Assembly (NCBI GenBank): GCA_026706635.1
Contig: JAPOYJ010000033.1
Coordinates: forward strand, 1,044 to 65,043
Direction: 5' to 3'
Origin: Gemmatimonadota bacterium
GTDB taxonomy: Bacteria > Gemmatimonadota > Gemmatimonadetes > Longimicrobiales > Gaopeijiaceae
Length of the DNA: 64,000 nucleotides
The translations under genes were made by a program, and so were the position numbers. A model generated the notes under the pieces. That model searched no databases. It saw nothing but the letters and a program-made list of their open reading frames with translations, and was not told where the DNA came from. This document shows, piece by piece, positions 69-62,065 of the stretch (position 1 is the stretch's first letter; each line of letters opens with the position of its first letter).

Positions 69-107
69 TGTAAATCATGGATTACACAATGTAAAGCATA
101 GATTACA
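69..107 (+). promoter_or_regulatory. 39-bp double palindrome, site S1 (TGTAAA-N6-ATTACA caa TGTAAA-N6-ATTACA), overlapping the 3' end of modC
   Basis: Read directly: tgtaaa tcatgg attaca caa tgtaaa gcatag attaca. Same 6-6-6-3-6-6-6 geometry as 7 other sites. Confidence 0.6.
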
Positions 108-815
108 TTATGGATAAGCGAAGAACTCGCCGACGAACGCCGTGGCCGGACTTGCGGCCAGCTCGTCGGGCGAACCGCTCTGGACCACTGCGCCCGCCTC
201 GAGGACGTGCACCTGCTTCGCTCCGAGCCCACGGAGATCGCGCACATCGTGAGTCACGATCAGCGAGGCCGCCCGGCAGGCCGCCAGGTGGCGGGCCAGG
301 AACCGGCGGGTCGCGGGACGGGCACCCGCGTCGAGCGCCGCCAGCGGTTCGTCGAGGACAAGGAGATCGGGATCGGCGACTAGCGCTCTCGCGAGCGCGA
401 CCTGCTGCCGCTCCCCGCCGGAGAGGGTGGTGGCGGTACGCCGGGCGAGGTGCTCGCATCCCAGGTCGCCCAGCATCGAGAGGGCGGAGCTCCGGCGTTC
501 GCGGCGCGGCGGTCGGGGCCGGTTCGCAACCAGTCCGAAGGCCACGTTGTCGAGTACGTCGAGGTGCGTGAAGAGCCCCGATCCCTGCGGAACGTACCCG
601 ACGCCCCGTTCGCCTGGGGGGAGCGAGAGCCCCGCACCGGAGTCGTAGAGGATCCGGTCGCCCACCCGGATGCGGCCCGACTCGGGGGTGTGGCCCCCGC
701 AGATCGTCCGGAGCAGGGTGGTCTTCCCCGCGCCGTTTGGTCCGATCAGGAGGGTGGGTGAACCATCGCCGCAGAGTCGTGCAGAGAGGCGGAAGCTCCC
801 GGCCTTCGCCCGCAC
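108..815 (-). CDS. modC: molybdate ABC transporter ATP-binding protein (last 235 codons of track ORF 108..1688)
   Basis: Walker A GPNGAGKTT, signature LSGGERQQ, Walker B LLVLDEP, H-loop VTHD. GTG at 815 lies just after the modB stop (836). The upstream part of the ORF is Arg/Pro-rich shadow overlapping modB. Confidence 0.85.
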   Translation of the reverse strand: MRAKAGSFRLSARLCGDGSPTLLIGPNGAGKTTLLRTICGGHTPESGRIRVGDRILYDSGAGLSLPPGERGVGYVPQGSGLFTHLDVLDNVAFGLVANRPRPPRRERRSSALSMLGDLGCEHLARRTATTLSGGERQQVALARALVADPDLLVLDEPLAALDAGARPATRRFLARHLAACRAASLIVTHDVRDLRGLGAKQVHVLEAGAVVQSGSPDELAASPATAFVGEFFAYP

Positions 816-835
816 GTCAGCCTCCCAGGGTGCCC

Positions 836-1624
836 TCACCGGGCGCCGCGCACTGCCAGGGCCCTCGGCACCATCCGCAGGGGGACCAGCAGGAGAGTGC
901 TCGCCGCAGCCAGGAAGAGCGCCAGCGCGACCGCCGTGCGGCTGTCGGACTCGAGCGCGGTGTAGATCGCCAGCGGCATCGTCTGCGTGGCGCTCGCCAG
1001 ATTCCCGGCGAAGAAGAGCGTCGCCCCGAACTCCCCAAGCGCTCTCGCCCACGAGAGCGCCCCGGCGGTGACCATCCCCGGGAGCGCAATCGGCACGGCG
1101 ACCCTGAGGAAGGCGCCGGCCTGGGACTGCCCGAGGGTGCGGGCCACAATCATGAGGTCCTCGTCCACGGAACGGAAGGCGGTCGCCGCACCCTGGATGT
1201 AGAAGGGCGCCGAGACGGCGACCTGCGCCAGGACCACCGCGGTCGAGGTGAAGGGCAGAGTGAGGCCGAGGGCAGCCAGAGGCGGGCCGAGGAGGCCCGA
1301 GGGCCCGAGGGCCTGGAGGAGGGCGATCCCCATCACGGCGGGGGGCAGGACGATGGGAAGGTCGATCAGAACTTCGGCGGCGCGCTTCAGCCTGCCTGTC
1401 CCCCGGGCGAGCCACCAGGCGAGAGGGGTTCCTGCGACCGCGATCACGAGGATGCTGACGGCGGTGGTTCGCGCGCTCAGGGCGAGAGCTGGCAGAAAGA
1501 GCGGGTGGCGGGCTCCGGCCGCGAGGTCGGAAGGCGTGGACGCAAGGACGAGCGCGACGATCGGGAGCGCCGTGAATAGGAGGATCGGGAGCGCCCACGC
1601 GCCCCCGCTCAGCCTTCGGAGCAT
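836..1624 (-). CDS. modB: molybdate ABC transporter permease
   Basis: 262 aa, multi-TM, with the EAA-like loop of type I importer permeases ([14 protein letters not shown]). Sits between modA and modC. Confidence 0.9.
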
Positions 1625-2412
1625 GGCTCTTCGGGTGGGAGAAAGCCCTCGCGGAGGAGGCTCTCACGACCAGGCCCCGTGGCCACATAGCGGAGCCACT
1701 GGCGCGCCGCCCGCGGGGAGGGGGAATCGGCCAGGATCGCCATCAGGTACTCCGCCCGCACATTCGCCCACTCAGGGATCGGAACCTCCCGCACCCTTCC
1801 CGGCTGGACATCGGTCCGGTAGACGATCGCGGCGTCCGCGGCGCCCATCTCGACCTTGGCCCGGACCAGGCGGGCGTTCCCCTCCTTCGAGACGACCCTC
1901 TCGAGCAAGGCCTCCTCGAAGCCGAGGCCGAGCCTCTCGCGAGAGCGCTCGACGACCTTCAGCGTGTAGCCGCCGAGCGGCGTCGCATCCGTCCCGATCA
2001 CCAGGCGCTCGGCGCGTGGCAGCTCGGCGAAGCTCCCGATCGCTCCCGATCCGTTTGCTGGCACGATCACAGTCAGCTCGTTGCCCGCGATCGGGCGATA
2101 GTCGGCGACGAGCCCCGCGTGCGCCAGCGCCTCCACATGGCGCCGGTCGGCCGAGGCGAACACATCCGCGGGGGCACCCTCCTCGATCTGGAGCTTCAGC
2201 ACATGGCTGCCCGCAAAGACGAGGCGGAGGTCGACACCTGGGTGGTCGGCCTCGAAGGGCGCCTCCATCCCGGCGAATGCGTCCGACAGCGACGATGCCG
2301 CGAATACGAAGAGAGGCTCCCGCTCGCCGCCCCCGCTGCAAGCGGCCACGGAGGCTGCCGCCGGGAGCGCCAGCACCCCGCGGGCCGCCGCCAGCAGGCC
2401 AGCCGCCCTCAC
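1609..2412 (-). CDS. modA: molybdate ABC transporter substrate-binding lipoprotein (last 267 codons of ORF 1609..2805)
   Basis: Signal/lipobox [10 protein letters not shown], then the ModA-like motif [10 protein letters not shown]...VFASAD. GTG at 2412. Confidence 0.85.
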
Positions 2413-2440: not shown

Positions 2441-3226
2441 CTACGGAGTGATCGTAGCGGGCATCCGATCGGCATCGGCGCCAAATTCCGGATCTGCGAG
2501 CGTCTCGAGCACCCGGGAGACCGGCGGAGCGTCCGCGCTCTCGGCCGGAAGCACCAGCGCCTGGTGCCACTTGGCCAGCTGGACGGTCCGCAGGCGCCAG
2601 GAGGGGAGCGCGCCCTTCGCGGCAGCGATCGCGGCGTCGGGCCCGTCGTCGCCCTCCAGCTGAAGTCCGGCGATGTGCACGAAGCCGTCGGCGAGGAGAT
2701 CGAGGGCGCGACGATTGCCGGAGGGGAGCCACCGCGCCTGCAGGTCCGCAAAGCGCCGATTCGCCCTGCTGGCGGCGACGCCGAGGAGCGGTCCGCTACC
2801 CGCAACCAGGACGCCCCGGGCGAGCTTGGCCTCGCTGAAGAGAGGGCTCACGCTCGCCTGCGTATCCGTGTGCGAGACCAGGACGCCGTCGGCAGCCTCC
2901 GCCCCAGCGGGTGGTAGCCGGTGCGCCACCCAGTCACCCGCGACCCGCGCCAGCGCCACCCGCTCGCTGCCCCCACACCGGTCGGCCTCGGGGGCGAGAC
3001 GGGCCTGCAGGGCGTCGGGCCGGGTCAGGTGGAAGATGTCCTCGACGCGGCACTCGAGGGCGCGGGCAAGGCGCAGGGAGAGCATCGTCGAGGGCGCGTT
3101 GCGTCCTCCCTCGATGGCGACGATCGCCTGGCGGGAGACTCCGGTGCGCTCCGCCAGGGCGGTCTGGGAGAGGCCGGCGGCCCTGCGGCGCGACCGCAGG
3201 CGGGTATCGAGTCGAAGATCGGACAT
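2441..3226 (-). CDS. XRE-family HTH regulator fused to a periplasmic-binding-protein-like (molybdate-binding type) domain
   Basis: N-terminal HTH (LSQTALAERTGVSRQAIVAIEGG). C-terminal ~170 aa PBP-like domain. Immediately upstream of modABC on the same strand. Confidence 0.7.
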   Translation of the reverse strand: MSDLRLDTRLRSRRRAAGLSQTALAERTGVSRQAIVAIEGGRNAPSTMLSLRLARALECRVEDIFHLTRPDALQARLAPEADRCGGSERVALARVAGDWVAHRLPPAGAEAADGVLVSHTDTQASVSPLFSEAKLARGVLVAGSGPLLGVAASRANRRFADLQARWLPSGNRRALDLLADGFVHIAGLQLEGDDGPDAAIAAAKGALPSWRLRTVQLAKWHQALVLPAESADAPPVSRVLETLADPEFGADADRMPATITP

Positions 3227-3258: not shown

Positions 3259-3297
3259 AGTAATCGGGAGATTACATAATGTAAACTGCGATTGTCA
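3259..3297 (+). promoter_or_regulatory. 39-bp double palindrome, site S2 (AGTAAT-N6-ATTACA taa TGTAAA-N6-TTGTCA) in the divergent regulator/GNAT intergenic region
   Basis: Read directly; lies 33 bp upstream of the regulator start (3226). Confidence 0.55.
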
Positions 3298-3455
3298 TTT
3301 TTCAAGCTACCGGTGTCGTTGACGCCTCCCCAATCGAGCCCTTCCCCCTGCCAGGGGGGCGCTTCGCCGCTCTAGCCGCTCGCGCGAGACTATCGACCGA
3401 GTGCTCGCCGTGCGCGCGAGACTGCGGGCCGTGCGACGCTGGGTAGATTCGATCC

Positions 3456-6609: not shown

Positions 6610-7142
6610 TCATGACGCGCACCGCGGGTCGGGGCAGCTTTCGATGAGCATGGACCAGAAGCTCTCTACGCCGTTCGCGTGGACCTGCCCCCGGACGTAT
6701 TCGCCAACGTTGTGAGCGACGGCCTGATGGTTGGGCCGCCCCCGGTCTTGCCGTGGAGCGAGGCCGTGCCTGCGAGCTCCGCGCGCCTCGCATTCGACAT
6801 GTTCCTGCGCTTGCCGCCGAAGTGCGCCTCGTCCACCTCGACCGGGCCGGACATGGCTACTGCCCCCTCGGCTGCGAACGCCTCCCCGATGCGCCGCTGC
6901 ATGAACCAGGCGGTCTTGTAGCTGACGCCGATGTCGCGGTGCAGCTTCATGGCGGCCACGCCCTTGAGGCTCGTCACGTCGAGGTAGATCGCGTAGACCC
7001 ACTTCCGGATCGGCACCTTGGACCGCTCCATGAGCGTGCCAGTGCGGACGCTGAAGTAGCTCCGGCAGTCGGAGCACCAGTAGGGCATCTTGGCGTGGCT
7101 GGCGTCCGTGGTGCGGATGGATCCGCGAATTCTCTCGTTCAT
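6610..7142 (-). pseudogene. IS1595-family (ISXO2-like) transposase remnant, frameshifted and truncated
   Basis: N-terminal Zn-ribbon/HTH part (YWCSDCRSYFSVRTGT...SYKTAWFMQRRI...VEVDEAHFGGK) is in one frame. The DDE C-terminal signature (VHANGVESFWSML) is in another frame (ORF 6610..7077). Confidence 0.6.
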
Positions 7143-7238
7143 GTCAATCCAAGGTTATAATCCCCGGCGCGACGAAGGGTTGGTACCAGCGCTACCGGCC
7201 CGACGAGCAACGCAGAGCGAAGTCGCGGGAATGGGAAT

Positions 7239-7277
7239 TGTAAACCATGGAATACACAAAGCAAATCATACATTACA
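7239..7277 (+). promoter_or_regulatory. 39-bp double palindrome, site S3 (TGTAAA-N6-AATACA caa AGCAAA-N6-ATTACA)
   Basis: Read directly. Followed by the GC-rich module 7278-7351. Confidence 0.5.
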
Positions 7278-7351
7278 GTGTCGAGAGACGAACGAAGCGG
7301 TCCAGCGGGGATGCAGCGCTGCTCGAATGCCGTGGGGGGTTTGTCCACGGG
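7278..7351 (+). repeat. GC-rich ~70-nt repeat module (copy B)
   Basis: ...cgaagcggtccagcggggatgcagcgctgctcgaatgccgtggggggtttgtccacggg. Near-identical to 62066-62139; related to 42680-42744, 38141-38248 and 27215-27262. Confidence 0.7.
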
Positions 7352-7490
7352 CTGCTAGGTCCCGGAGCGCTTCCGCGTTGTCCAAGAAGGTCAGACGGCG
7401 CGCCGCTTGATCGGCGAAGCCGTGAAATGCCCCGACCCACTGCCCCTCGAAGAAGCGCTTGGTGTTCCGGTCCTTGAAGCTTCGAATCAT
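7345..7490 (-). pseudogene. higB: HigB-like (RelE superfamily) toxin, N-terminal ~49 codons only
   Basis: MIRSFKDRNTKRFFEGQ...ARRLTFLDNAEALRDLAARG matches the HigB N-terminal half. The reading frame then runs into repeat copy B. No higA downstream. Confidence 0.5.
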
Positions 7491-7663
7491 CGATTTCACA
7501 AGGTACGCGAGATTACGGATTACGTAAAATGTAATCGGTATCCTCGGTGTCAACGCCTTTCTCCCCGGTACGGGCTTCCACGGTGTCCCGGAGGACGTCT
7601 GAAGCTTCCAGATCGGCAGCTGCCCAGGTCTGCCACAAAGTGGATCAAGGACCCGTAAGGGCC

Positions 7664-7690
7664 GAACCCTTGCGCAAAGCGCATTAGTTC
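7664..7690 (+). repeat. REP-like hairpin element, copy 1 (GAAC-ccT-TGCGC-aaa-GCGCA-tta-GTTC)
   Basis: Read directly; one of 5 copies with the same asymmetric hairpin. Confidence 0.65.
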
Positions 7691-7813
7691 AAACCACCGG
7701 GGCCGCAGCCCAGGAAAGCGGCGTCCGAGCCGGTACCGAGTCGACCACGGATCCAATCGCTCGCCGGGGCTCATGAAATCCCATTCGGGCGCCTGACACT
7801 ATACCGCAAACAT

Positions 7814-8134
7814 TTAGCTCAGCACGTTGAGCGATCGCCTGATCTCATCCTCGCTCAACCGTCCGGCGCGCCGCAACAGCCGAGCGCGGTCAACGGTGCG
7901 GACCTGGTCAGCCACCACGAAACCGGCCCGTCCTTCGAACGAGCATCGGATTCGGAACGGGTAGGGGTGTCCGCCGGTGGTCATCGGCACCACAATAAAG
8001 GCGCCCAGGTGATCGTTCAGTTCGTCGGGCGACACCACCACGCAGCGTCGTGTCTTCCTGATCTCCCGCCCGCGGGTGGGGTCCAGCGACACCAGGTAGA
8101 CGTCGCCCCGGCGCAGGGCGCCTACCACTCCCAC
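7814..8134 (-). CDS. mazF: MazF/PemK-family endoribonuclease toxin
   Basis: RGDVYLVSLDPTRGREIRKTRRCVVVSPDELN...VVPMTT is the PemK fold signature. GTG at 8134/8128 overlaps the mazE stop. Confidence 0.8.
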   Translation of the reverse strand: MGVVGALRRGDVYLVSLDPTRGREIRKTRRCVVVSPDELNDHLGAFIVVPMTTGGHPYPFRIRCSFEGRAGFVVADQVRTVDRARLLRRAGRLSEDEIRRSLNVLS

Positions 8135-8370
8135 TCGAAGGTGTCGAAGTCCGTTGGAGCCGGATCGTCCAGCAGGCCGGTTTCGCCGCGCTCTCGCATT
8201 TCCTGCGCTGCCGCGCTCCATCCGTCACGAGGTCTCGCCGCAGGTTCGATCAGCAAGCCGGACGCTGTGACTCGAAATCGAAGCGGGCCTCTGTCGAGTC
8301 CCGCTGCCTCGATGAACGCCTTGGGGATCCGGACCCCGCGCGAGTTGCCGATTCGGATGAGCTTTGTCAT
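8122..8370 (-). CDS. mazE: AbrB/MazE/SpoVT-family antitoxin
   Basis: MTKLIRIGNSRGVRIPKAFIE is the swapped-hairpin AbrB motif. AGGAGG upstream. Confidence 0.75.
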   Translation of the reverse strand: MTKLIRIGNSRGVRIPKAFIEAAGLDRGPLRFRVTASGLLIEPAARPRDGWSAAAQEMRERGETGLLDDPAPTDFDTFEWEW

Positions 8371-8477
8371 CACCGCCCACACACCTCCTTTCGATGACTC
8401 CGACCAGATCCTAACGTGACTACGAAGTAATCACCTGCTTGTCGCGATTCAACCAGCCGGACCTTCGTCTTCTCCGC

Positions 8478-9734
8478 CTACGGTCCAAGCGCCGCGATCG
8501 GAATCACCCCCACGCCGTCCGGCCTGACATGCCCGTATCCGCCAGCCACGATCACGCCCAGCGCCCGGGGCGGTCCCACCACATCCGGGTCCACCCGCTC
8601 GGCGAGCCTGAGCAGATTGCGGGCTCCTTCCTCCACGGCCCTCGGTCCCAGCTTCACCTCGAAGGCCGCCCAGCGTCCGTCACGGCCCTTTACGACGGCG
8701 TCCACCTCGAGGCGCCCGCCCTCGCGGTAGTGGAAGACCTCGGCGTCGGCGGCCTGGGCATAGACTCGGAGATCGCGGACGACCATCGACTCGAAGAGCA
8801 GCCCGAGAAAACGGAAGTCCCGCAGCAGCCGCTCGGGACCCGTGCCCAGCGCGGCCACGGCCAGCGACGGATCGACGAAATGGCGGACGGGACGCTTCCG
8901 CAGGACTGCGCGCGAACGCAGGTGGGTCGCCCAGGCCGGCTGGTTCTCGACGATCATGATCCGCGCGAGAGCATCTAGGTAGTCCGCAGCGGTGTGCGGC
9001 TTCATGCTCCCGTTGTCGCGCGCGCCCACGTCGGCGATCAGCTTCGAGGTCGCGACGGCGGTGCCGACGTTTCGGGCCAGCGAACGCAGGAGGAGCCGCA
9101 CGCGCTGAGGGTCTCGGCGAACGCCGTCCACGGTCCGGATGTCTGCGCGGGCCACATCGTCGACCTGGCTGCGATTCGCTCGCAGGGCGCGACGGAGCGG
9201 CCAGTCCACGCTCTCGGGCCATCCTCCCCGGCAGATCAGCTCGGCGACCTCGCCGACCGGGATCGTGTGGTCGCCGGCGGCGGGTGCCTCTCCCGCGAGC
9301 AGGCGACCGAGCGAGATCGCGCCCGAGGAACGCCCCGACTCGTGCAGCGACATGGGCCGGAGACGCAGCCGGACGATGCGGCGCATTCCCGTATGCCGCG
9401 TGGCGTCGTCCGAGGGAAGGGCCGAGCCAGTGAGGATGAACTGCCCGACCGCGCGCCGGTCGTCGACGGTCCGTCTGACGTGATTCCAGATCCGCGGCTC
9501 CAGCTGCCACTCGTCAATGAGGCGCGGCGTCGGCCCCCTCAGCACTTCGGCCGGATCGGCCGCGGCTAGGTGACGTGCGTCGTCGTTGATGTCCAGCAGG
9601 ACTTCGCTGGCCGAGAACTCCCTTGCGGTCGTGGTCTTGCCGCAGCCCCGCACGCCCTCGATCACCACGCAGCCGGTGGCGCGAAGAAGGTCGCGCATCT
9701 CCTGATCTGCGGTTCTGGCGAGGTATCGCGGCAT
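8478..9734 (-). CDS. AAA-family ATPase with C-terminal DUF4143-like domain
   Basis: Walker A GVRGCGKTT, Walker B-like RLIDEWQ. The 418-aa architecture is typical of AAA_14 + DUF4143 proteins. Confidence 0.75.
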   Translation of the reverse strand: MPRYLARTADQEMRDLLRATGCVVIEGVRGCGKTTTAREFSASEVLLDINDDARHLAAADPAEVLRGPTPRLIDEWQLEPRIWNHVRRTVDDRRAVGQFILTGSALPSDDATRHTGMRRIVRLRLRPMSLHESGRSSGAISLGRLLAGEAPAAGDHTIPVGEVAELICRGGWPESVDWPLRRALRANRSQVDDVARADIRTVDGVRRDPQRVRLLLRSLARNVGTAVATSKLIADVGARDNGSMKPHTAADYLDALARIMIVENQPAWATHLRSRAVLRKRPVRHFVDPSLAVAALGTGPERLLRDFRFLGLLFESMVVRDLRVYAQAADAEVFHYREGGRLEVDAVVKGRDGRWAAFEVKLGPRAVEEGARNLLRLAERVDPDVVGPPRALGVIVAGGYGHVRPDGVGVIPIAALGP

Positions 9735-10056
9735 GGTGGGGGGGTTGCGGGGAGGGGTGCGAACGGCGGAAGATACCTGGAACGCGTGGAGAGCCGCAAC
9801 TCCGGTAACGGCAGGAATATGACGAATACGGCGGCAGAAATATGGCCAGCGTAGCGGCAGATTTACGGGCCGGCAAACCCCTCACTGCCCAGACCGACCT
9901 AGCAGCGCGCCTTGAAGTAGGATGCGTTGATCGTCTCCATAAGACCAGTCTCGATGACCGGTCATTTCGTGCGGGTGCCCGGCCCCGTCGCCTTGGAGCT
10001 GCAGGGCGATGGTACTTGTCTTGGTACCTAGTCCTCATGTATGTTAGCCTGCGACT

Positions 10057-10311
10057 GTGAGAAAGAGGCATCAGAGGATCCTGGAGAAGGTGCTTGCGCA
10101 CCCCCCGCCTCCCAACTTGCGATGGCGGGAAGTCGAGTCCATGCTGCTCGCGTGTGGGGTCGAGATCGTGGAGCGATCCGGATCACGCATGGGGCTGAAG
10201 CTGGCCACTCGGCGGATGGTGGTTCACCGCCCCCATCCCGGCCCGACCGTGGGCCGGGCGACGATTCGGGACCTCGCCGCATTCCTAGGATCCGCGGGAG
10301 TACAGCCATGA
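10057..10311 (+). CDS. hicA: HicA-like mRNA interferase toxin
   Basis: 84 aa, YcfA/HicA-like pattern (...RSGSRMGLKL...VVHRPHPGPTVGRATIRDL). ATGA overlap with hicB. Confidence 0.65.
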   Translation: MRKRHQRILEKVLAHPPPPNLRWREVESMLLACGVEIVERSGSRMGLKLATRRMVVHRPHPGPTVGRATIRDLAAFLGSAGVQP

Positions 10312-10670
10312 TGGAGTACAAGGGGTATGTCGCCGAAGTGGAATTCGACGACACCATCGAGATCCTTCACGGTCGTGTCGTCAACAGCGGCCCGCATCCC
10401 ATAGCGACCTTCCAGGCCATCGACGCCAGGGAGCTTCGGCGGGAATTCGAACGATCGATCGACGAATACCTCGCGTGGTGCGAAGAGGACGGTGCGAGAC
10501 CGCAGCCTCCCTTCTCGGGCAAGCTCAATCTCCGGCTGGGAACCGAGCTTCATGCCGCGGTCGCGGCGGCCGCGGCCGCGAGGCGGATGAGCATCAACGC
10601 ATGGATCGTGCGGGCCGTGCGGCAGGCGACCGGCCCGCGGGAAGGATCGTCCGCCAAGGCGCGAAGGTAA
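10308..10670 (+). CDS. hicB: HicB-family antitoxin (internal ATG of ORF 10041..10670)
   Basis: MMEYKGYVAEVEFDDTIEILHGRV... plus C-terminal RHH-like part (LNLRLGTELHAAVAAAAAARRMSINAWIVRAV). Confidence 0.75.
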   Translation: MMEYKGYVAEVEFDDTIEILHGRVVNSGPHPIATFQAIDARELRREFERSIDEYLAWCEEDGARPQPPFSGKLNLRLGTELHAAVAAAAAARRMSINAWIVRAVRQATGPREGSSAKARR

Positions 10671-10798
10671 GCGTCGGGCCGCCAACCCCCGCGTCCGCCT
10701 GGCGTCCAGCCTATTTGGGTGCCAGATCACCGACCCCGATGCTACCTTGACAGCATGAATCCCCCGTCGAACCCGGCCAAATCCCGTCCGTCCCAGCG

Positions 10799-11746
10799 AT
10801 GACAACCTCGCACCGAACGGTCCAACTCGATCTCGTCCCGGTCGTGGATGCGTCTACCGGCAGTCCTTGGGTCCAGCCGGAGGCGTTCGCGCATCGGAGA
10901 CTGGACGCCCCCGCAACCAGGCCGGTCGACCTGCACGATGAATCCCTGCTAATCTGCGGCGACGCCGCCGAGGCGCTCGCGGCGATTCCGGACGGAGTGG
11001 TCCAGACAGTCGTCACCTCCCCTCCCTACTGGTCGCTGCGGGACTACGGGATCGAGATGCAGACCGGCCGCGACGACGAGCTTGGGGACTACGTGGCCAA
11101 GGTCGTGGAAGCGTTTGAGGAGGTGCGCCGAGTGCTCCGCAACGACGGCACGGTCTGGCTCAACGTGGGTGATTCCTACACTTCCGGGAACCGTCGCTAC
11201 CGAGCCCCAGACCGGAAGAACCGCGCTCGGGCCATGGCCGTTCGACCTCCTACGCCTCGGGGGCTCAAGCCGAAGGACCTGATCGGCGTGCCGTGGCGGC
11301 TCGCACTGGCGCTTCAGGAAGCCGGATGGTGGATCCGCGCGGAAGTCATCTGGCACAAGCCCAACGCGCACCCCGAGTCGGTCCGGGACCGTCCGACACG
11401 GGCCCACGAGACGATCTTCCTGCTGTCGAAGAGCCAGAACTACTACTATCGAATCGATGCCGTGCAGGGTCCGAATCAAAGGAGGCTGCGGACTGTCTGG
11501 GATCTCAACACCGAGCCCCGCAGGGCCGGCGACGGCGACGTGGCTGGCCATCCCGCGGTGATGCCCATGACGTTGGCGCGTCGATGCGTCGCGATCACCA
11601 GCGCTCCGGGCGCGATCGTTCTGGACCCGTACGCGGGATCGGGAACAACGCTCCTGGCCGCCCGCGACCTGGGGCGCAGGTGGATCGGCGTTGAGCTCAA
11701 TCCGTCCTTCGTGGAGCTGATCGAGCGAGGGCTGGGTTCCCGGTGA
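10799..11746 (+). CDS. beta-class DNA methyltransferase (N4-cytosine or N6-adenine), type II R-M
   Basis: Motif IV TSPPYW near the N-terminus and motif I DPYAGSGTT near the C-terminus (order IV...I = beta class). SPPY favours N4C. Confidence 0.85.
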   Translation: MTTSHRTVQLDLVPVVDASTGSPWVQPEAFAHRRLDAPATRPVDLHDESLLICGDAAEALAAIPDGVVQTVVTSPPYWSLRDYGIEMQTGRDDELGDYVAKVVEAFEEVRRVLRNDGTVWLNVGDSYTSGNRRYRAPDRKNRARAMAVRPPTPRGLKPKDLIGVPWRLALALQEAGWWIRAEVIWHKPNAHPESVRDRPTRAHETIFLLSKSQNYYYRIDAVQGPNQRRLRTVWDLNTEPRRAGDGDVAGHPAVMPMTLARRCVAITSAPGAIVLDPYAGSGTTLLAARDLGRRWIGVELNPSFVELIERGLGSR

Positions 11747-12498
11747 CCTTGCAGGAGCTCAAGTCCCGGCTGGACGAAATGTCGCCTCTGAAGGTCCAGT
11801 TCGTCGCCCGCGTCGTGGACGCGCTGCTGCACCCGCCGCAGACCCATGTGCGAAAAGAGGGGACATGGCTCACGGGATCGCCCGCTTGGCTCGAGTACTT
11901 CTCGCTCGCGCTGTCAGTGCATCACGGAGCGACCACCGTGCCCTTGGGCCTCACCGAGTTCGAGACGGTGTTTCGGAACGCTTGCGAGTCAATTGGATGG
12001 CGTACCGATCCGCCCGGGTCGGCCACTCGCCGATTCGTCGACCTGGAGGTGTGGGTGGACAACCAGCCAGAGCGGAAGCTGTCCTTGAAGTCAACGGCGG
12101 CGAAGCGCCTGTCCGAGTCCACGGTCCACATTTCGAAGCTCACGGAAGCTGCTTGGATTCAGGACACGAGGACGCCGGCAGACCGACGGGAACGAACACT
12201 GAGTCTCTTCAGGGACTACGCGAAGGCCGTGGACTCCATCGTCATGCTGAGGGCATTTCGGACCGAGGGGGTTCCTGATCGATATCAGCTGGTCGAGATT
12301 CCGACATCGCTCTTCGCGTCCATCCAGGATGCTCCACTTGATTCGTTCCGGTCGGACGCTCCGGTGGTTCCATGCCATTCCGGCGACCGCGTAGTCGCGC
12401 ACATGGCCTTGGACCGCTCCGACGCCAAGGTGACGATCCGCCGAATTGAGCTGTCCGCGTGCACCATTCACGCTGAATGGGTGCGATCCGGGCGGTAG
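11743..12498 (+). CDS. putative type II restriction endonuclease partner
   Basis: GTGA start/stop overlap with the methyltransferase. Candidate PD-(D/E)xK element FVDLEV...LSLKS. No family recognised. Confidence 0.5.
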   Translation: MTLQELKSRLDEMSPLKVQFVARVVDALLHPPQTHVRKEGTWLTGSPAWLEYFSLALSVHHGATTVPLGLTEFETVFRNACESIGWRTDPPGSATRRFVDLEVWVDNQPERKLSLKSTAAKRLSESTVHISKLTEAAWIQDTRTPADRRERTLSLFRDYAKAVDSIVMLRAFRTEGVPDRYQLVEIPTSLFASIQDAPLDSFRSDAPVVPCHSGDRVVAHMALDRSDAKVTIRRIELSACTIHAEWVRSGR

Positions 12499-12529
12499 GC
12501 GTGTGTCCCGTGCCCCGCCTAGCCTAAAC

Positions 12530-13525
12530 CTACCCCTTCGCCCGCCGCCCGAGGTCGGTCAGGCGGTACTCCTGGTTCGGGGTGCTCGGTGCGCCCGGAC
12601 GAGTCATCTCGATGTAGCCCCGCTCTAGAGCCGGAAGCAGGTAGCGCTGCCTGAACGACTTACGGTCCCGCAGGTCGAGCGCTGCCATGATCTGCCGCCG
12701 CGACATCGCGCCCTGGAGCGCGGAGAGCAACCGCACGACCTGGGGGGTAACCTGGGGGGCTGCCTGGGGGGTGAGCGCAGTCAGGATGGCGTCAAGCATG
12801 TACTCGATGAAGCTGGTGCTTTCTCCTGCAGCCGAACTCTCGCGGATTGCCTGGTAGTATTCGCTCTGCCGGGCGTGAACCACGCTCTCCACGGGGACGG
12901 CGGCGAAGAGCCGGTTCCAGCGGGTCAGGATCAGGCTCTGCCAGAGGCGGCCCAGTCGCCCGTTGCCGTCTTCGAAGGGGTGGATGAACTCGAACTCGTA
13001 GTGGAAGACCGAACTCGAAATCAGGGGATGCTCGTCGGTGGCCGCCAGCCATTCGAGAAGGTCGGCCACCAAGCCGGGAACCCGGTGCGGCGGAGGGCCG
13101 ACATGCTCGACCTCGCCGCCACGCATCACGGCTACGGGAGAGGAGCGGTAGCGCCCGGGATCGTCCAGCAGCGCGCGCATGAGAATCTCGTGGGCGCGGA
13201 GCAGATCGGGTTCGCTCGCCGGGTCCCACTGCTGGCAGCGGTCGTACACCTCGATGGCATTGCGCGCCTCCTGGACGTCGCGCACCGGCCCGACCACGGG
13301 CTTGCCGTCGAGGATCGTGGCGATCTGGTTCTGCGAGAGGCGGTTACCTTCGATCGCTAGCGATCCGCGTATGGTGCTGATCCGGTTGACGCGCCGGAGT
13401 CGCAGATCCTGCATCACGCCCGAGGTCTCGGCCCTGCCGATGGCTTCGCCTATCTCCTCGACACGCCCAGTGATCGCCGGGGTGATCGCGTAGGGTGGTC
13501 TGCGCACGGTCCGAACTCCGTTCAA
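12530..13525 (-). CDS. Fic-family AMPylase-type protein, class II (internal inhibitory helix), C-terminal wHTH
   Basis: Canonical HPFEDGNGRLGR motif and N-terminal inhibitory SxxxEG motif (SLAIEGN). Confidence 0.85.
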   Translation of the reverse strand: MNGVRTVRRPPYAITPAITGRVEEIGEAIGRAETSGVMQDLRLRRVNRISTIRGSLAIEGNRLSQNQIATILDGKPVVGPVRDVQEARNAIEVYDRCQQWDPASEPDLLRAHEILMRALLDDPGRYRSSPVAVMRGGEVEHVGPPPHRVPGLVADLLEWLAATDEHPLISSSVFHYEFEFIHPFEDGNGRLGRLWQSLILTRWNRLFAAVPVESVVHARQSEYYQAIRESSAAGESTSFIEYMLDAILTALTPQAAPQVTPQVVRLLSALQGAMSRRQIMAALDLRDRKSFRQRYLLPALERGYIEMTRPGAPSTPNQEYRLTDLGRRAKG

Positions 13526-13552
13526 AGTGGCTCGCGCATCAGCTGGACCAGG

Positions 13553-13939
13553 TCACCAGATCCGGCGTACTCCAAAGCCGTCCAGCACCTCGTCGGCCGA
13601 CACCACGGCCAGGTTCCGCGCCAAGGCCTGCGCGGCAAGCATCCGATCAAAGGGGTCGCGGTGGGGTCCCGGCAGCCATCCCGCCCGCTCGGCGTCGCGA
13701 ACTCCGACCGGGAGGGGCACGAAGCCCTGATCCCGAATTGTTCCGGCGACATCGACGGCGACGGCGCTGGCACCGGGGAGCCTGCCTAGCCTGGATTTGG
13801 TCGCGATCTCCCATGCGGACGCCGCGCTGACAATGATGTCGTTCGTCTCGTCCGCTATGGCGAGTCGCGCGCGGCCCGAGAGGCGACCGCTGTCCGCGAT
13901 CCACCAGAGCAGGGCGTGGGTGTCGAGCAGCAGCGGCAC
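13553..13939 (-). CDS. vapC: PIN-domain toxin VapC
   Basis: LLLDTHALLWW...SAASAWEIATK...DPFDRML is the PIN acidic-residue pattern. Confidence 0.85.
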   Translation of the reverse strand: MPLLLDTHALLWWIADSGRLSGRARLAIADETNDIIVSAASAWEIATKSRLGRLPGASAVAVDVAGTIRDQGFVPLPVGVRDAERAGWLPGPHRDPFDRMLAAQALARNLAVVSADEVLDGFGVRRIW

Positions 13940-13941
13940 CC

Positions 13942-14175
13942 CTACCTGCCCTCCCAGGCCCTAAGCTCCTCCTCCGGCAGCGGGTCGAAGAACGAGTCCG
14001 GGATGACGACCTTGTCCTTGAGCAGATCGGGTATCCGCCGTCCCTGCGGTGCGACGGCCACCAGTCGCGCGACCGGCTTTCCGCGCCGGGCAACGACGAC
14101 TTCCTCCCCCGCCTCGACCCGCGCAAGGAGGCGGGAGAGCTGGGTCTTGGCTTCGTGAACGTTGACTGTGAGCAT
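13942..14175 (-). CDS. Phd/YefM-family antitoxin
   Basis: MLTVNVHEAKTQLSRLLARVEAGEEVVVARRGKPVARLV is a typical Phd N-terminus. Confidence 0.8.
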   Translation of the reverse strand: MLTVNVHEAKTQLSRLLARVEAGEEVVVARRGKPVARLVAVAPQGRRIPDLLKDKVVIPDSFFDPLPEEELRAWEGR

Positions 14176-14345
14176 GGCTCCCTCGTCCTTCTCGTTCGGG
14201 TTGCAGTCATGAGCGGTAGGCCAATCTAGCTAAGTGATCGGACCAGGTCAAAGTGTCGGAAGGGCGACCATCCCCACGCCGAGGTTCCCGTGCCGTGGCC
14301 GCGCTCTCGGTCCCGCGATTCAGTCTGGCCTGACCCGCAAGTGCC

Positions 14346-38071: not shown

Positions 38072-38140
38072 GGGCCGCTAGCGGTCCATGGACAGAGCCG
38101 CCCGAGCACCGAGAGCGGCGAGGCGCCGGGCTGGCAAGGC

Positions 38141-38248
38141 GCGACGAAGCGGGAATAGCAGCGCTATTCGTGCGAGGAGTAACGCAGAGCCCAGCCGTCC
38201 AGCGTGGATGCATCGCCGCTCGAATGCCGGGGGGATTCTGTGCATGGG
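38141..38248 (+). repeat. GC-rich repeat module (copy D, lacks the AT-rich double palindrome) in the pstC-pstA intergenic gap
   Basis: ...agccgtccagcgtggatgcatcgccgctcgaatgccggggggattctgtgcatggg aligns with copies B and C. Confidence 0.55.
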
Positions 38249-38252
38249 CCGC

Positions 38253-39185
38253 TTACTCCTTCCGGATTCCGCGGACGACGATGTCCGCGGTGAGGTTGAT
38301 CGCGAAGGTGACCACGAAGAGGAGGATGCCCAGGGTGAAGAGGGAGCCGTAGTGATCCCCTCCCGTCACCGTGTCGCCGAGCTCGGCGGCGATCGTCGCG
38401 GTGAGCGCCCGCACCGAGTCGAAGACGCTGGTGGGGAGGTTGATCGCGTGGCCCGAGGCCATCAGCACGGCCATCGTCTCCCCGAACCCTCTCCCGACGC
38501 CCAGGAGCACGGCGGCCAGCAGCCCGTTCCGGGACGCCGGAATCACCACCTTGAGGATCACCTCCCAGCGGGTCGCCCCCAGCGCTTCCGCCGCCTCGCG
38601 GTAGGTGTCGGGCACCGCCTTGAGCGCATCCTCGGCGATCGTCGTCATGATGGGGGCTGCCATCAGCCCCAGGATCAGCCCTGCGTTGAGGACATTCAGC
38701 CCCACCGGGATCTCGAAGGTCTGGATGATGAGCGGGTTCATGATCGACATGCCCACGAACCCCCACACCACCGATGGGATCGCCGCCAGCATCTCCACTA
38801 GGACCTTCAGCGTCTCGCGCGTCTTGCCGCTGGCGAACTCCGCGATGAAGAGCGCCGCGCCCAGCGACAGGGGGACCGACAGGAGCATCGCGAAGCCCGT
38901 CACGCTGGCGGTGCCCACGATCAGCGCCAGCGCCCCGTACGTCGGGTTGTTGGAGGTGGGCCGCCACGCGATCGAGGTCAGGAATTCTCCCAGCTTCAAC
39001 GGCCCCAGGACGAAGCCGAGACCCTCCTTGGTGATGAAGACGAAGATCCCGACGATGAAGACGATCGCCGAAATGCCCCCGACGAAGACGAGGAGGCGGG
39101 CGGCACGGTCCACATGCCACGCCATGTCCCTGCGATCCATTGCGCCGATGCCCGCACCGGCGCCGGGGCTGTCGGCAGGCGTCAC
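38253..39185 (-). CDS. pstC: phosphate ABC transporter permease PstC
   Basis: Multi-TM with the EAA loop GRGFGETMAVLMASG. GTG at 39185 forms a GTGA overlap with the upstream stop (alternative ATG at 39140). Confidence 0.85.
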   Translation of the reverse strand: MTPADSPGAGAGIGAMDRRDMAWHVDRAARLLVFVGGISAIVFIVGIFVFITKEGLGFVLGPLKLGEFLTSIAWRPTSNNPTYGALALIVGTASVTGFAMLLSVPLSLGAALFIAEFASGKTRETLKVLVEMLAAIPSVVWGFVGMSIMNPLIIQTFEIPVGLNVLNAGLILGLMAAPIMTTIAEDALKAVPDTYREAAEALGATRWEVILKVVIPASRNGLLAAVLLGVGRGFGETMAVLMASGHAINLPTSVFDSVRALTATIAAELGDTVTGGDHYGSLFTLGILLFVVTFAINLTADIVVRGIRKE

Positions 39186-42640: not shown

Positions 42641-42679
42641 TGTAAACCACGCATTACATAGTGTCACGTAGAGTTTACA
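42641..42679 (+). promoter_or_regulatory. 39-bp double palindrome, site S4 (TGTAAA-N6-ATTACA tag TGTCAC-N6-TTTACA)
   Basis: Read directly. Followed by a diverged GC-rich module (42680-42744). 170 bp upstream of tRNA-Asn. Confidence 0.55.
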
Positions 42680-58095: not shown

Positions 58096-58134
58096 TGTCA
58101 ACGCCAGTTGCCATTATGTAAACTGTGCTTGTCA
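58096..58134 (+). promoter_or_regulatory. 39-bp double palindrome, site S7 (TGTCAA-N6-TTGCCA tta TGTAAA-N6-TTGTCA)
   Basis: Read directly. Lies in the divergent intergenic region, 160 bp upstream of the GLPGLI gene. Confidence 0.55.
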
Positions 58135-59149: not shown

Positions 59150-62007
59150 GGACGGTGCTGCCCGCTATCCGCGGCCTGCTCGCCATCTGCGCACTCGGGC
59201 TGGCTGGCACATCCGGGTCGCTCCAGGCGCAGGAGGAGTACCACGTCACTGGCGTCGTGCAGGACACGGCCGGTGCACCGATCTCCGGGGCGATGGTAGT
59301 TGCCCTGACCGCGGCCGACTCGGTGCTCGCCAAGTACGCGCTGACCAGCGGCGAAGGCAGCTTTCGTCTAGGCGGCCTCCCGGTGGGCGCGTACATCCTG
59401 CAGGTCACCCTGATCGGCCACCAGACGGTGCGCCGTCCCTTCGAGCTCGCCGACTCCGACCTTGACGCCGGCGTCGTGACGATGCGGATCATGGCCGTCG
59501 AGATGGACCCCCTGGTGGTGAGTGTCGAGCAGGTGCCCTTCGTCGTCCGCCGCGACACGCTCAGCTACAACGTGGCGGCCTTCGAGACGCCGCCCAACGC
59601 GATGGTCGAGGATCTGCTCAAGCGCCTTCCCGGCATTGACGTGGACAACGACGGCACGATCACCGCCCAGGGGGAGGAGGTCGAGAATGTCCTGGTTGAC
59701 GGACGCGAGTTTTTCGGCCCCGACCCGACGATCGCCACGCGCAATCTGCCCGCCGACGCGGTAAGGCAGGTCGATGTCTTCGACAAGCAGTCCGACATGG
59801 CCGAGTTCACCGGCATCCCCGACGGCGACGATGAGCGCACGATCGACCTCAGGCTGCACGAGGAGGCGCGGGCGGGTCGCTTCGGCAGGGTGTCGGGTGG
59901 CTTCGGGCAGGACGTGAACAACGAAGCGCGCATCGGGACGGCAGCCGCCAACGATCTGCGATACGAGGGCTGGCTGAACATCAACCGCTTCTCGCCCACC
60001 ATGCAGCTCTCGCTCGCCGCCAACACCGACAACGTCAATCGGGAGAACTTCGCCGCCAGCGAGCTCTTCTCGGCGCTGGGTGCGCTGGGCCAGCTGGGGG
60101 CGCTTGGCGGCCTGGGCAGGGGCGGCTTCGGCGGTGGCTTCTCGGGAGCTCCGGGCTTCACGGAGTCGCTCGGGGTCGGTCTCAACGCCAACCGGGACTT
60201 CGACGACTCGGGTTGGATTCGAAGCAGCTACTTCCTGAGCCAGATCGACAATCAGCGGGACCAGCTGGTCCAGGAGCAGGCCCTCTTCGGAGAAGACGTG
60301 GCCTCGCTTTCCACGCAGACCGGTGCCAGCAGCTCCGTCCGGTCGAGCCACCGAGTGAATCTGAACGCCGAGTACTCGCCCTCGCCCAGACAGCGGCTGC
60401 GCCTCCGGGCAACGGTCAGACGGGGCTCCTCGGCAGCCTCCTCGCTCTCGGAGCGCACGACCGTCACCGCCCAGCCGCCACCGCTCAACACGGCGAACAC
60501 CGTGAATGTGACCGACGGCGAGGAGTGGCGCGGCAATGCCCAGATCACCTGGATGCGCCGCCTGAGCGACGAGGGCGGGAGCATCGTGGCCGAGTTCCGC
60601 AGCGGCATCGAGGACTCCGACGAGGACACGGACCACCGTTCCACGATCACCGCGGCCGAGCTGGGTGGCGACGACGACGTCGTGCGAAGCCTCGTCCAGC
60701 AGCAGGAGAGCGATCTCCGCACCCTCGACAACTCGCTCCGTCTCTCGCTGACGCAGCCGCTCGGCGAGCGCTACACGATCGAGGCCTTCGGGCGGGCCAG
60801 CGCGGTCGACCAGGTCCAGGACCAGGTTGTGAGCGACGTGACTGATGGCGGGTCGGTGCGGAACCCCGAACTCAGCTCCGGCTTCGAGCGACTATACTCG
60901 TACGCGAACGTGGGGGCGCGCTTCAGCCGACAGGCGGAGGAGTCGTGGGTCACCGTGAGCGTGTACGGACAGCGATCTTCGCTCGATGGCACAATCCTGG
61001 ACCGCGACACCACCATCTCGAGCGGGTACACGCATCTGCTCGGCGAACTCGACCTGAGGTGGCAACCGAAGGAGAGCCACACGATCAGCACGGGGTACAA
61101 CACCTCCACCCGCGAGCCCTCGCTGCACGAGCTTCAGCCATTTGTCGACAACCGCGACCCGACCAGCATCTACATCGGCAACCCCGACCTGCGCCCGGAG
61201 TACAGCCACCGTCTCAGGGCGGACTATCGCTTCTTCGACGCCTTCAGCTTTGTCAACCTCTTTGCGAGCGCGAGCGTGAACTACACCGGCAACCCGATCG
61301 CAAGGGAGCGAACCTTCGACGAGCGCGGCGTCCAGACGGTGACCCCGATCAACACCGACGCCGAGTGGGGGGGGAACTCCTTCGTGTTCTTCGGGTCGCC
61401 AGTGCGGAGGCTGGGCGTCGACGTCGATGTAAGACACATTGTCAGCTACTCGAGGGGCTGGGAGCTGATCAACGGTAGCACGAGCCGGAGCCGCACGGTC
61501 ATGAACATGGCGGGCATCGGAGTCACGAACCGCAATAAGAACACCTTTGAATTGGGACTGAACGCGAACTTCACCTTCCACGACGTGGACTACTCGCTCA
61601 ACCAGGACCTGAGCCGCAGCTACGTCAACAGCGAGTACACGGCAGATGGGACGCTATACCTGGGGGGCTGGACGATCACTTCGTCGCTCGAGTGGACCCG
61701 CTACGACGACGACCTCTACGGCCAGGGCACTGGGAGCGGCGACGAAGGCTACTCGCCGGGCCGGGATGTGGCGCTCCTGAACGCCGGCGTCACGAGGCGG
61801 CTCCACGGCGATCGGGTCGAGGTCGAGCTGAGCGCCTTCGACCTCCTGAATCAGAACCAGACCGTGAACATCTCGAGCTCCAGCAACTTCATCCAGGAGT
61901 CCCGGACGGAGTCGCTCGGGCAGCATGTGATGCTGCGCCTAGTGTACCGGCTGGCTATGAGCGGAGGGGGGCGGGGGCGCAGCCGACCGGAGGCGCGGGG
62001 GAGGTAG
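59146..62007 (+). CDS. outer-membrane beta-barrel receptor-like protein (CarbopepD_reg-like + plug-like + barrel); last 953 codons of ORF 57766..62007
   Basis: GTGA overlap with the GLPGLI stop. Signal LAICALGLAGTSGSLQAQ; VTGVVQDTAGAPISGAMVV; DLLKRLPGIDVDNDGTITAQGEEV. Confidence 0.75.
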   Translation: MRTVLPAIRGLLAICALGLAGTSGSLQAQEEYHVTGVVQDTAGAPISGAMVVALTAADSVLAKYALTSGEGSFRLGGLPVGAYILQVTLIGHQTVRRPFELADSDLDAGVVTMRIMAVEMDPLVVSVEQVPFVVRRDTLSYNVAAFETPPNAMVEDLLKRLPGIDVDNDGTITAQGEEVENVLVDGREFFGPDPTIATRNLPADAVRQVDVFDKQSDMAEFTGIPDGDDERTIDLRLHEEARAGRFGRVSGGFGQDVNNEARIGTAAANDLRYEGWLNINRFSPTMQLSLAANTDNVNRENFAASELFSALGALGQLGALGGLGRGGFGGGFSGAPGFTESLGVGLNANRDFDDSGWIRSSYFLSQIDNQRDQLVQEQALFGEDVASLSTQTGASSSVRSSHRVNLNAEYSPSPRQRLRLRATVRRGSSAASSLSERTTVTAQPPPLNTANTVNVTDGEEWRGNAQITWMRRLSDEGGSIVAEFRSGIEDSDEDTDHRSTITAAELGGDDDVVRSLVQQQESDLRTLDNSLRLSLTQPLGERYTIEAFGRASAVDQVQDQVVSDVTDGGSVRNPELSSGFERLYSYANVGARFSRQAEESWVTVSVYGQRSSLDGTILDRDTTISSGYTHLLGELDLRWQPKESHTISTGYNTSTREPSLHELQPFVDNRDPTSIYIGNPDLRPEYSHRLRADYRFFDAFSFVNLFASASVNYTGNPIARERTFDERGVQTVTPINTDAEWGGNSFVFFGSPVRRLGVDVDVRHIVSYSRGWELINGSTSRSRTVMNMAGIGVTNRNKNTFELGLNANFTFHDVDYSLNQDLSRSYVNSEYTADGTLYLGGWTITSSLEWTRYDDDLYGQGTGSGDEGYSPGRDVALLNAGVTRRLHGDRVEVELSAFDLLNQNQTVNISSSSNFIQESRTESLGQHVMLRLVYRLAMSGGGRGRSRPEARGR

Positions 62008-62026
62008 GCCGCAGGGGCACTGGCAT

Positions 62027-62065
62027 TGTAAACTATGGATTCCACATTGTAATGCGTAGATTACA
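62027..62065 (+). promoter_or_regulatory. 39-bp double palindrome, site S8 (TGTAAA-N6-ATTCCA cat TGTAAT-N6-ATTACA)
   Basis: Read directly. Followed by GC-rich module copy C and then the EEP gene. Confidence 0.6.

Follow-up and report, generated by a model that had tools for sequence, protein, structure and literature searches.

Tandem palindromes resembling CylR2-type operators, beside a regulator gene and at dispersed sites in a sponge-associated Gemmatimonadota genome

The 39-bp element and its setting in the window

The window analysed in the present study is a stretch of 64,000 nucleotides (contig JAPOYJ010000033.1 of assembly GCA_026706635.1, positions 1,044 to 65,043) with a G+C content of 67.6%, which derives from the sponge-metagenome contig ROBB21-1 scaffold_478 of a sponge-associated Gemmatimonadota metagenome-assembled genome (MAG; also GCA_026707415.1). 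It opens with a regulator gene and modABC-like transporter genes, and further on come a toxin-antitoxin and defence island, a tRNA-Asn gene, ankyrin lipoprotein genes, a GLPGLI/outer-membrane-barrel pair and a gene for an EEP lipoprotein. Among these genes an AT-rich element of 39 bp, consisting of two 18-bp palindromes in tandem (TGTAAA-N6-TTTACA-N3-TGTAAA-N6-TTTACA), occurs at eight places, S1 to S8 (Table 1).

All eight 39-mers that a preliminary description of this DNA had listed were present where it placed them, while the strict regular expression offered for them fitted S1 and S6 only, the other six being degenerate variants. Over the 24 specified positions S1-S8 carry 2-5 mismatches; the next-best positions in the window score 9 and are S1-S8 themselves displaced by 21 bp, and no copy with 6-8 mismatches was found within it. 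Among 120 composition-preserving block shuffles, which retained the AT-rich islands, no site arose at 5 mismatches or fewer and about 0.01 at 8 or fewer. Single 18-bp palindromes with at most 3 mismatches number 17 in the window (chance expectation about 2), and 16 of them lie within S1-S8. In 196 kb of Gemmatimonadota DNA, moreover, the gaps between hexamers are nearly all 6, 3, 15 or 27 bp; the architecture is therefore rigid, and the unit is the entire four-hexamer arrangement.

The 39-mer extends symmetrically, with A at -1 (61% of sites), T at +41 (64%) and an enrichment of C at -4 and of G at +44. Its N6 spacers show merely a weak C-Y-A/T-R-G preference and are free to vary, whereas the hexamers are conserved. 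This combination, together with the lack of copies at 6-8 mismatches, fits selection on binding and not the decay of a repeat. S1, S3 and S8 are paralogous copies, and so are S5 and S6; the eight sites therefore represent about five independent origins. Partial half-sites of the GTAATC/GATTAC type, short of the full architecture, were also seen at 7505-7545 (gattacggattacgtaaaatgtaatcgg) and at 8415-8455 (aagtaatcacctgcttgtcgcgattc), the latter upstream of a MazE/PemK operon.

Table 1. Positions of the 39-mers and of related features in the window
Feature	Position	Strand	Description
S1	69..107	.	Putative orphan tandem operator, 'type A'; abuts the modC stop codon, between convergent genes
S2	3259..3297	-	Putative autoregulatory tandem operator of regulator-modABC; regulator ATG 32 nt downstream
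S3	7239..7277	+	Putative orphan operator within the full composite repeat
S4	42641..42679	.	Putative orphan operator; porin-like gene (-) on one side, tRNA-Asn (+) 169 nt away on the other
S5	47702..47740	.	Putative orphan operator 5-11 nt ahead of the start of an ankyrin lipoprotein gene; Shine-Dalgarno sequence directly after the site
S6	50863..50901	.	Putative orphan operator, paralogue of S5; precedes the tandem ankyrin paralogue, which probably starts at a GTG about 12 nt on
S7	58096..58134	.	Putative orphan operator 160 nt upstream of the GLPGLI/outer-membrane-barrel pair
S8	62027..62065	+	Putative orphan operator, type A with composite-repeat right arm; barrel gene stop codon 19 nt before
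Candidate cognate regulator	2441..3226	-	CylR2-type XRE HTH (residues 1-67) and PBP_like (molybdate-binding-like) domain
modA-, modB- and modC-like ABC transporter genes	108..2412	-	Co-oriented, directly downstream of the regulator gene
Solitary 18-bp palindrome, the only one in the window	7142..7159	.	TGTCAATCCAAGGTTATA, 3 mismatches; abuts the start of gene 6666-7142 (-)
Composite repeat, full	7166..7359	+	Hairpin module, 39-mer cassette and right arm
Composite repeat without the 66-bp cassette	38072..38253	+	Same repeat, no 39-mer
Further stretches of the repeat family	62022-62143, 3346-3405, 42333-42380, 42745-42792

A CylR2-like regulator gene and its operator across phyla

No regulator suited to such sites had been recognised in the window by the preliminary description; one is in fact encoded next to S2, with a helix-turn-helix (HTH) domain of the type found in CylR2, a repressor of Enterococcus faecalis (Pfam HTH_3, E = 5e-12; 39% identity to CylR2 over 59 residues). 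CylR2 and 9k3w, a PbsX-family regulator, were its top PDB matches, and C.AhdI and the 434 and P22 repressors were weaker ones among solved structures; the short XRE proteins described below match CylR2 and 9k3w as well. The window regulator, CylR2 and small XRE proteins have an invariant recognition helix in common, V-[S/T]-R-Q-[T/A]-I-x-A-I-E, with V30, R32, Q33, I35 and E39 unchanged across the ten aligned members. TunR, the tungstate regulator, was dropped as a homologue because its DNA-binding domain is recombinase-like. The regulator gene and the modABC-like genes after it presumably form one operon with the regulator first, and on the other side of S2 a divergent GNAT gene begins at a distance of 158 nt. 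At 261 residues the protein is shorter than the family norm of about 366: its residues 1-227 and 228-256 align to 1-227 and 323-352 of an orthologue with 67% identity, so the sensor domain bears an in-frame internal deletion of about 95 residues, which is common to the closest relatives (87-95% identity).

The element and this HTH family occur together across phyla, and this was found from both directions. Homologues of the regulator were gathered from metagenomes by protein similarity alone, independently of the motif, and just upstream of those at 92% (L115), 48% (L117) and 46% identity (L119) there are two or three palindromes of the TGTAAA-N6-TTTACA type with a 21-bp period; two or three such 18-mers with the same period likewise precede short XRE proteins of low-GC organisms (L120, L121, L122, L124, L127). 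The Gemmatimonadota orthologues L139 (67%), L140 (57%) and L141 (55%) have TGACAAyC...TTTACATyATGTAAT...ATTACW 47-57 nt upstream of the ATG, and altogether the tandem palindrome is kept 17-57 nt upstream of orthologues at 46-92% identity. A ModA homologue follows the regulator homologue in L117, ModB and ModC in L119 and the full modABC in L139-L141.

Starting from the motif, a scan with an exact pattern (which fits five of the eight window sites), with one genome per GTDB species, returned at least 108 loci. Among the matches listed, 53 are loci of Gemmatimonadota/Longimicrobiales MAGs, often several per genome (a single 2.9-Mb contig has at least 10), and the other 55 are single matches in many phyla, Archaea included. 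A CylR2-like HTH gene lies downstream in the same orientation at 36 of these 55 loci and at none of the 53 from Gemmatimonadota; it begins within 80 nt in 8 of the 36 and stands 380-522 nt off, behind a small multi-pass membrane protein, in 25. Many of the 19 non-Gemmatimonadota sites listed without an HTH gene lie less than 1 kb from the end of the contig or locus.

Individual loci serve as examples. In Chryseobacterium a perfect site precedes a 149-residue membrane protein and then a 66-residue XRE protein, in an Acidilobaceae archaeon a 138-residue DUF2178-like protein and then a 75-residue XRE protein, and in Bernardetia a perfect palindrome stands upstream of the cassette; for the homologues on a Listeria plasmid and on Bacillus anthracis pXO1 there is a TATAAT with a TGTAAA-N6-TTTACA palindrome on either side, the two palindromes standing 44 bp apart. 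No clear palindrome was found upstream of the Staphylococcus aureus and Halalkalicoccus homologues. As an observation in its own right, a two-gene cassette recurs across Bacteria and Archaea behind tandem TGTAAA-N6-TTTACA operators, its first gene encoding a small multi-pass membrane protein, DUF2178-like or unassigned, and its second a CylR2-like XRE protein of 65-75 residues (e.g., L027 1063-1773 and L086 3691-4369, with about 25 more loci in L009-L105), and a full-text literature search for DUF2178 found no paper.

The palindromes ahead of HTH genes across phyla therefore identify the palindrome of the 39-mer as the operator type of the CylR2-like HTH subfamily, and this linkage, together with its preservation at the regulator orthologues, makes S2 the likely autoregulatory operator. 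An earlier suggestion is thus supported, namely that two dimers of an HTH regulator could sit on one face of the DNA, as the tandem palindromes ahead of XRE/CylR2-type genes in many phyla and in Gemmatimonadota orthologues indicate.

Orphan operators and the readings they allow

Beside the operator next to the regulator gene, Gemmatimonadota genomes hold many copies without any such gene, which we call orphans. In 131 kb of Gemmatimonadota DNA retrieved via proteins and hence independently of the motif (L136-L141), 10-11 orphans were counted, about one per 12 kb, with a range of 0 to 5 per 22 kb; the operator type has thus proliferated. A site usually begins 0-40 nt past the upstream stop codon and leaves 50-200 nt to the next start codon, ahead of which it is the sole AT-rich island. 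The genes beside the sites have no functional theme. Fifty flanking genes (10 from the window, 40 from other Gemmatimonadota genomes) were scanned against Pfam, and those of the other genomes include arginine-deiminase-like, GGT, short-chain dehydrogenase/reductase and amidohydrolase genes, rplI, ssb, lptE, dsbD and transporter genes, as well as an E2 subunit, a NuoN-like protein and restriction-modification (RM) and toxin-antitoxin genes; pyrF was recognised among orphan neighbours by its translated N-terminus. The proposed bias towards envelope or secreted-protein genes consequently did not hold up, given the mixed neighbours and the 4 of 17 orphans that stand between convergent genes.

About 20 of 75 sites, in several genomes, have flanks that belong to a single composite repeat of about 255 bp, in the order module B (GGATAATCTCGCGCGAGCACCGAGAGCGGCGAAGCGCCCC), a hairpin whose stem sequence changes between copies while its self-complementarity stays, GAGGAGCAACGCAGAGCGAAGC, a 66-bp cassette with the 39-mer, and a 70-nt right arm that ends in GGGAGGTTTGTCCACGGGCTGCTAG. 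The family is modular and intergenic, about 190-255 bp in length, and 70-90% identical among several Gemmatimonadota genomes; tandem arrays occur in L041 (2184-2893) and L067 (3267-3696). GAGCGAAGC stands once in copies that lack the cassette and twice where it is present. Rfam, searched at gathering thresholds, returned only the tRNA-Asn for the entire window, and E-value scans of 37950-38350 and 7050-7800 gave nothing meaningful. Two further candidates were rejected after type-A sites: a conserved leader or small RNA, for which RNAalifold over 12 copies, folding the right arm downstream of the 39-mer only, detected a single compensatory pair, the covariation term being -0.15, and a small open reading frame (MGRRAKRSSGDAAPLECRGRFVHGLL), which has a 2-nt indel in several copies and no start codon in one. 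Another short intergenic repeat family was noticed at 21798-21870, 14334-14408 and 7650-7700 (42-75 bp aligned, 81-90% identity), two copies of which stand about 40-80 bp from the sigma-70-like promoters at 21912-21940 (+) and 14223-14251 (-).

We consider it rather probable, judging from sequence comparison, that the 39-mers are tandem operators for CylR2-type XRE proteins, that S2 serves autoregulation and that the seven others are orphans of an operator type multiplied in Gemmatimonadota. One HTH dimer would occupy each 18-bp palindrome, and with centres 21 bp apart both dimers would lie on the same face of the DNA. S2 would be the autoregulatory operator for the adjoining fusion of a CylR2-like HTH with a molybdate-binding-like domain, the first gene of regulator-modABC; in Gemmatimonadota the operator type has multiplied to about one copy per 12 kb, with roughly a quarter of the copies lying within the composite repeat. 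An orphan ahead of a gene probably overlaps its promoter, its hexamers doubling as a TTGACA-like -35 and a TACAnT- or TGTAAT-like -10, and binding there would repress by occlusion. The steps that such an account presupposes, that a CylR2-type protein physically binds the 39-mer, that the orphans are served by the neighbouring regulator and not by a paralogue elsewhere in the genome, and that binding results in repression, are ones we infer from these comparisons.

Several points weigh against this reading. The loss of about 95 residues from the sensor domain means that the regulator may be altered or non-functional. About 620 kb of Gemmatimonadota DNA disclosed no second CylR2-like gene, but an amount of that size is too small to exclude a paralogue. 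The density of orphans (10-11 per 131 kb, and 7 in the window) is far above the need of a molybdate-type regulon. The 17 orphans from motif-independent sequence, the window's seven and those of L136-L141, are 4 convergent, 5 divergent and 8 co-directional, which is the expectation of random intergenic placement without any orientation preference, so that many orphans cannot act on a promoter; the motif-selected sample of sites comprised 6, 12 and 31, respectively. Finally, the E. faecalis cyl region that was read has, upstream of cylR1, a single matching inverted repeat with an N7 spacer, as against the tandem N6 palindromes of the 39-mer.

A more tentative extension, which we regard as possible but doubtful, is that the CylR2-type regulator of Gemmatimonadota has passed from an autoregulator of a single locus to a genome-wide factor resembling a nucleoid-associated protein, with several hundred operators per genome as extrapolated from about one per 12 kb. 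The operators would then mark intergenic regions regardless of gene orientation, spread in part by the 255-bp repeat. The oxyanion-sensor fusion adjacent to S2, its sensor partly deleted in the sponge-symbiont lineage, may be a candidate for the factor.

Among the alternatives, we think it unlikely that the 39-mer is itself a symmetric, bidirectional promoter cassette of the sigma-70 type to which protein binding is incidental. The geometry would be a -35 at 13-18 (TTKACA), a 17-bp spacer and a -10 at 36-41 (TACAnT), mirrored on the bottom strand, or else TTGxxA-N16-TGTAAT. Such a view draws on the 39-mer being the only AT-rich island ahead of the start codon with no sigma-54 promoter there, on functionally diverse downstream genes that include housekeeping ones, and on a divergent intergenic region of 59 bp in L090 that contains the site and nothing else. 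A generic promoter scan found -35/-10-like geometry with the exact 17-bp spacer at S1, S2 and S4, and the 17-bp-spacer reading would also account for A at -1 and for T at +41, the latter being commoner where it faces a gene (25 of 33, versus 16 of 33). TTKACA-N17-TACAnT fits S1, S4 and several others; however, S5, S6 and S7 have no -10 box in that geometry and fit neither it nor TTGACA-N16-TGTAAT well, and at S5, S6 and the L090R site transcription would have to start at or before position 40. All four hexamers are kept whatever the orientation of the genes, with about a quarter of the motif-independent orphans between convergent genes, and TGTAAT has G at the essential -11 position. The identical motif stands ahead of the homologous HTH gene in Archaea and Bacteroidota, where promoters differ, and for that reason it is probably not a sigma-70 promoter as such.

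The suggestion that the motif is the housekeeping promoter of the lineage is not supported, on the same ground and also because numerous operon starts in the window lack a 39-mer, with canonical TTGACA-N17-TAnnnT promoters elsewhere (21912-21940 and 14223-14251). Its reading of the hexamers as TTGxxA-N16-TGTAAT survives for the regulator's own operator, where TTGACA-N16-TGTAAT is perfect in L140 and L141, but does not extend to all sites. Three placements were tried (-35 at 0-5 with -10 at 22-27; -35 at 13-18 with -10 at 36-41; central CATAAT as -10), and none suits every site. Also rejected were a sigma-54 enhancer site (no TGGYWY-N5-TKGC between 50 sites and the downstream start codons), a terminator (no GC-rich stem or T-run, and 16 sites in divergent regions) and an integron attC-like folded site (N6 spacers mostly non-complementary). 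The 39-mer probably overlaps the promoter at the regulator's own operator, and an operator overlapping promoter elements wherever a gene follows, as in cyl, the Listeria plasmid and pXO1, appears the most economical reading.

That the sites belong to a selfish intergenic repeat without host function, comparable to miniature inverted-repeat transposable elements (MITEs) or repetitive extragenic palindromic (REP) sequences and owing their look of binding sites to the element, is in our view very unlikely. The composite flanks of some 20 sites in several genomes and their tandem arrays speak in its favour, as do the duplicated GAGCGAAGC by which copies with the 66-bp cassette differ from those without it, the replacement of the barrel-EEP element between relatives and the random orientation of sites relative to flanking genes. 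About 55 of the 75 sites, however, have no repeat flanks; the full-length relatedness typical of REP and MITE families is missing, with spacers unrelated between most copies; and the hexamers stay intact while the spacers differ, with no tail of decayed copies. Stand-alone sites have neither terminal inverted repeats nor target duplications, their flank positions being complementary and not direct repeats, and in other phyla the identical arrangement goes together with a regulator gene.

Boxes of a TyrR/PhhR-type protein, or of another oligomeric regulator with 18-3-18 geometry such as ArgR, are hardly credible: TGTAAA-N6-TTTACA does equal the TyrR box, as the preliminary description remarked, and the 39-mer does have the 18-3-18 spacing of paired ARG boxes, yet the likeness ends at the level of sequence, since none of the sites has a TyrR-like or ArgR gene linked to it, the neighbours taken as a set have nothing to do with the metabolism of aromatic amino acids or arginine, the 39-mer has the core TGTAA-N8-TTACA and lacks the TGAAT-N4-ATTCA of ARG boxes, no TyrR/NtrC-type domain was found in 20 Pfam-scanned window proteins (of about 48 called genes), no TyrR-regulon gene was found among the 50 scanned flanking genes, and the strong linkage of sites to XRE genes points to a protein of that type.

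Within the window, the surroundings of the orphans are varied. The plus-strand open reading frame at 110-571 that had been placed after S1 is a spurious antisense artefact, as it overlaps the modC-like ABC ATPase gene of the opposite strand (108-839, minus). Neither the Pfam scans nor the contig's public gene calls disclosed a convincing gene on the plus side of S3. Copies of repeat module B lie on both flanks of S4, and the tRNA-Asn gene near it has a promoter-like TTGACT-N17-GATCCT of its own. The ankyrin genes had been thought to start 0-5 nt from S5 and S6 and to yield nearly leaderless mRNAs; the starts lie instead 11-13 nt after the sites, and the mRNAs are not leaderless because a GGAAGG-type Shine-Dalgarno sequence stands between site and start codon. 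From S8 it is 71 nt to the GTG at which the EEP lipoprotein gene probably starts. A recognisable orthologous site exists for S7 in a relative with 90% identity of the barrel protein and none in one with 74%, and the barrel-EEP intergenic region has a site in both relatives, in an element that differs from that of S8. The presence of sites at these corresponding places in relatives counts in favour of the operator reading.

A number of other observations were made along the way. The ankyrin open reading frames 47746-49593 and 49248-50792 overlap in different frames (47746-50792), which suggests that a single long ankyrin gene either carries a frameshift or was misassembled; at the matching position the relative L136 encodes a product of 2163 residues. 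Between its barrel and EEP genes the same relative (90% identical) has a phage-type integrase gene beside a 39-mer-bearing composite repeat (12907-14436). The island at 7814-16514 contains PemK/MazE, AAA_14/DUF4143, HicB, Fic and two PIN genes, one of which has a Phd antitoxin as its partner, along with an N6_N4 methyltransferase and a SmaI-like endonuclease; it is variable, because a related contig (L005) has GSH-S_N directly after the 158-residue gene. Two adjacent large minus-strand genes of about 750-800 codons share 90% DNA identity over 1.8 kb (30512-32295 against 32935-34723), and the second has internal repeats with a 72-bp offset (34633-35017).

Significance and comparison with known systems

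The present analysis attaches a concrete protein family to a DNA motif that is abundant in and typical of Gemmatimonadota. For the phylum, a search of the full-text literature turned up no account of a motif, operator or promoter of this kind, and it gave nothing relevant on TGTAAA/TTTACA. The helix V-S-R-Q-T-I-x-A-I-E and TGTAAA-N6-TTTACA at a 21-bp period are conserved from Firmicutes and Bacteroidota to Thermoprotei and Asgard archaea, and the pairing of helix and operator could serve to annotate the operators of cassettes that join a small membrane protein to an XRE protein. If the orphans are bound in vivo, they would clearly exemplify the proliferation of an operator, in part by means of a repeat element, with a bearing on the origin of nucleoid-associated proteins and global regulators. 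In that case the symbiont's ankyrin, EEP and outer-membrane genes would have a control element in common with many housekeeping genes and would not form a dedicated host-interaction regulon. A genome-wide factor, if true, would mean that a regulon or the chromatin has been rewired by an operator-carrying repeat in a little-studied phylum.

TyrR of gamma-proteobacteria is an NtrC-like protein with a Fis-type HTH, and strong and weak TyrR boxes occur as adjacent pairs. Their 18-bp consensus is identical to that of the 39-mer, which differs in having no such gene linked to it, in its unrelated downstream genes and in its phylum.

Mosaic intergenic repeats that bear protein-binding sites are known as the bacterial interspersed mosaic elements (BIMEs) of Escherichia coli, with RIP elements that carry an IHF site, and as the Correia elements of Neisseria. 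The composite repeat resembles them in setting an AT-rich binding module among GC-rich modules and in being multicopy, intergenic, variable in content and sometimes tandem. No link to RAYT or another transposase was found for the composite repeat; unlike BIMEs and RIP elements, it holds only about a quarter of the 39-mers, and its module matches an operator of the XRE family and not an IHF site.

Small XRE dimers such as the C proteins of RM systems and phage CI and Cro bind cooperatively, as a dimer of dimers, to two palindromes over a promoter, with a footprint of 35-40 bp. C-boxes and the CI/Cro operators have other half-sites and belong to single loci, whereas the 39-mers are dispersed, and the RM genes of the window (10799-12498) have no 39-mer linked to them.

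The closest parallel is offered by CylR2 itself, a cytolysin repressor encoded together with the small membrane protein CylR1; CylR2 is reported to bind and repress the overlapping divergent cyl promoters (PMC3709268). We read TTGTCAAGTGTCACTTGACAA in the cyl promoter of E. faecalis, 18 nt before cylR1 (plasmid NZ_CP124896). CylR2 and the window regulator share the HTH fold and the invariant recognition helix at the identity given above, and the cyl operator shares with the 39-mer the half-site TGTCAA/TTGACA and a place directly ahead of the regulator's own operon. Just as the cyl operator lies in overlapping divergent promoters (PLys/PReg), S2 stands directly before the regulator operon with the GNAT gene divergent. 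The two systems differ in the partners of the regulator: CylR2 is paired with the CylR1-like membrane protein, whereas no small multi-pass membrane partner of that kind was found in the operon of the window regulator, which is a PBP_like fusion heading modABC-like genes. They differ, too, in the multiplication of the operator, which, unlike that of the cyl system, recurs in Gemmatimonadota as an orphan about once in every 12 kb.

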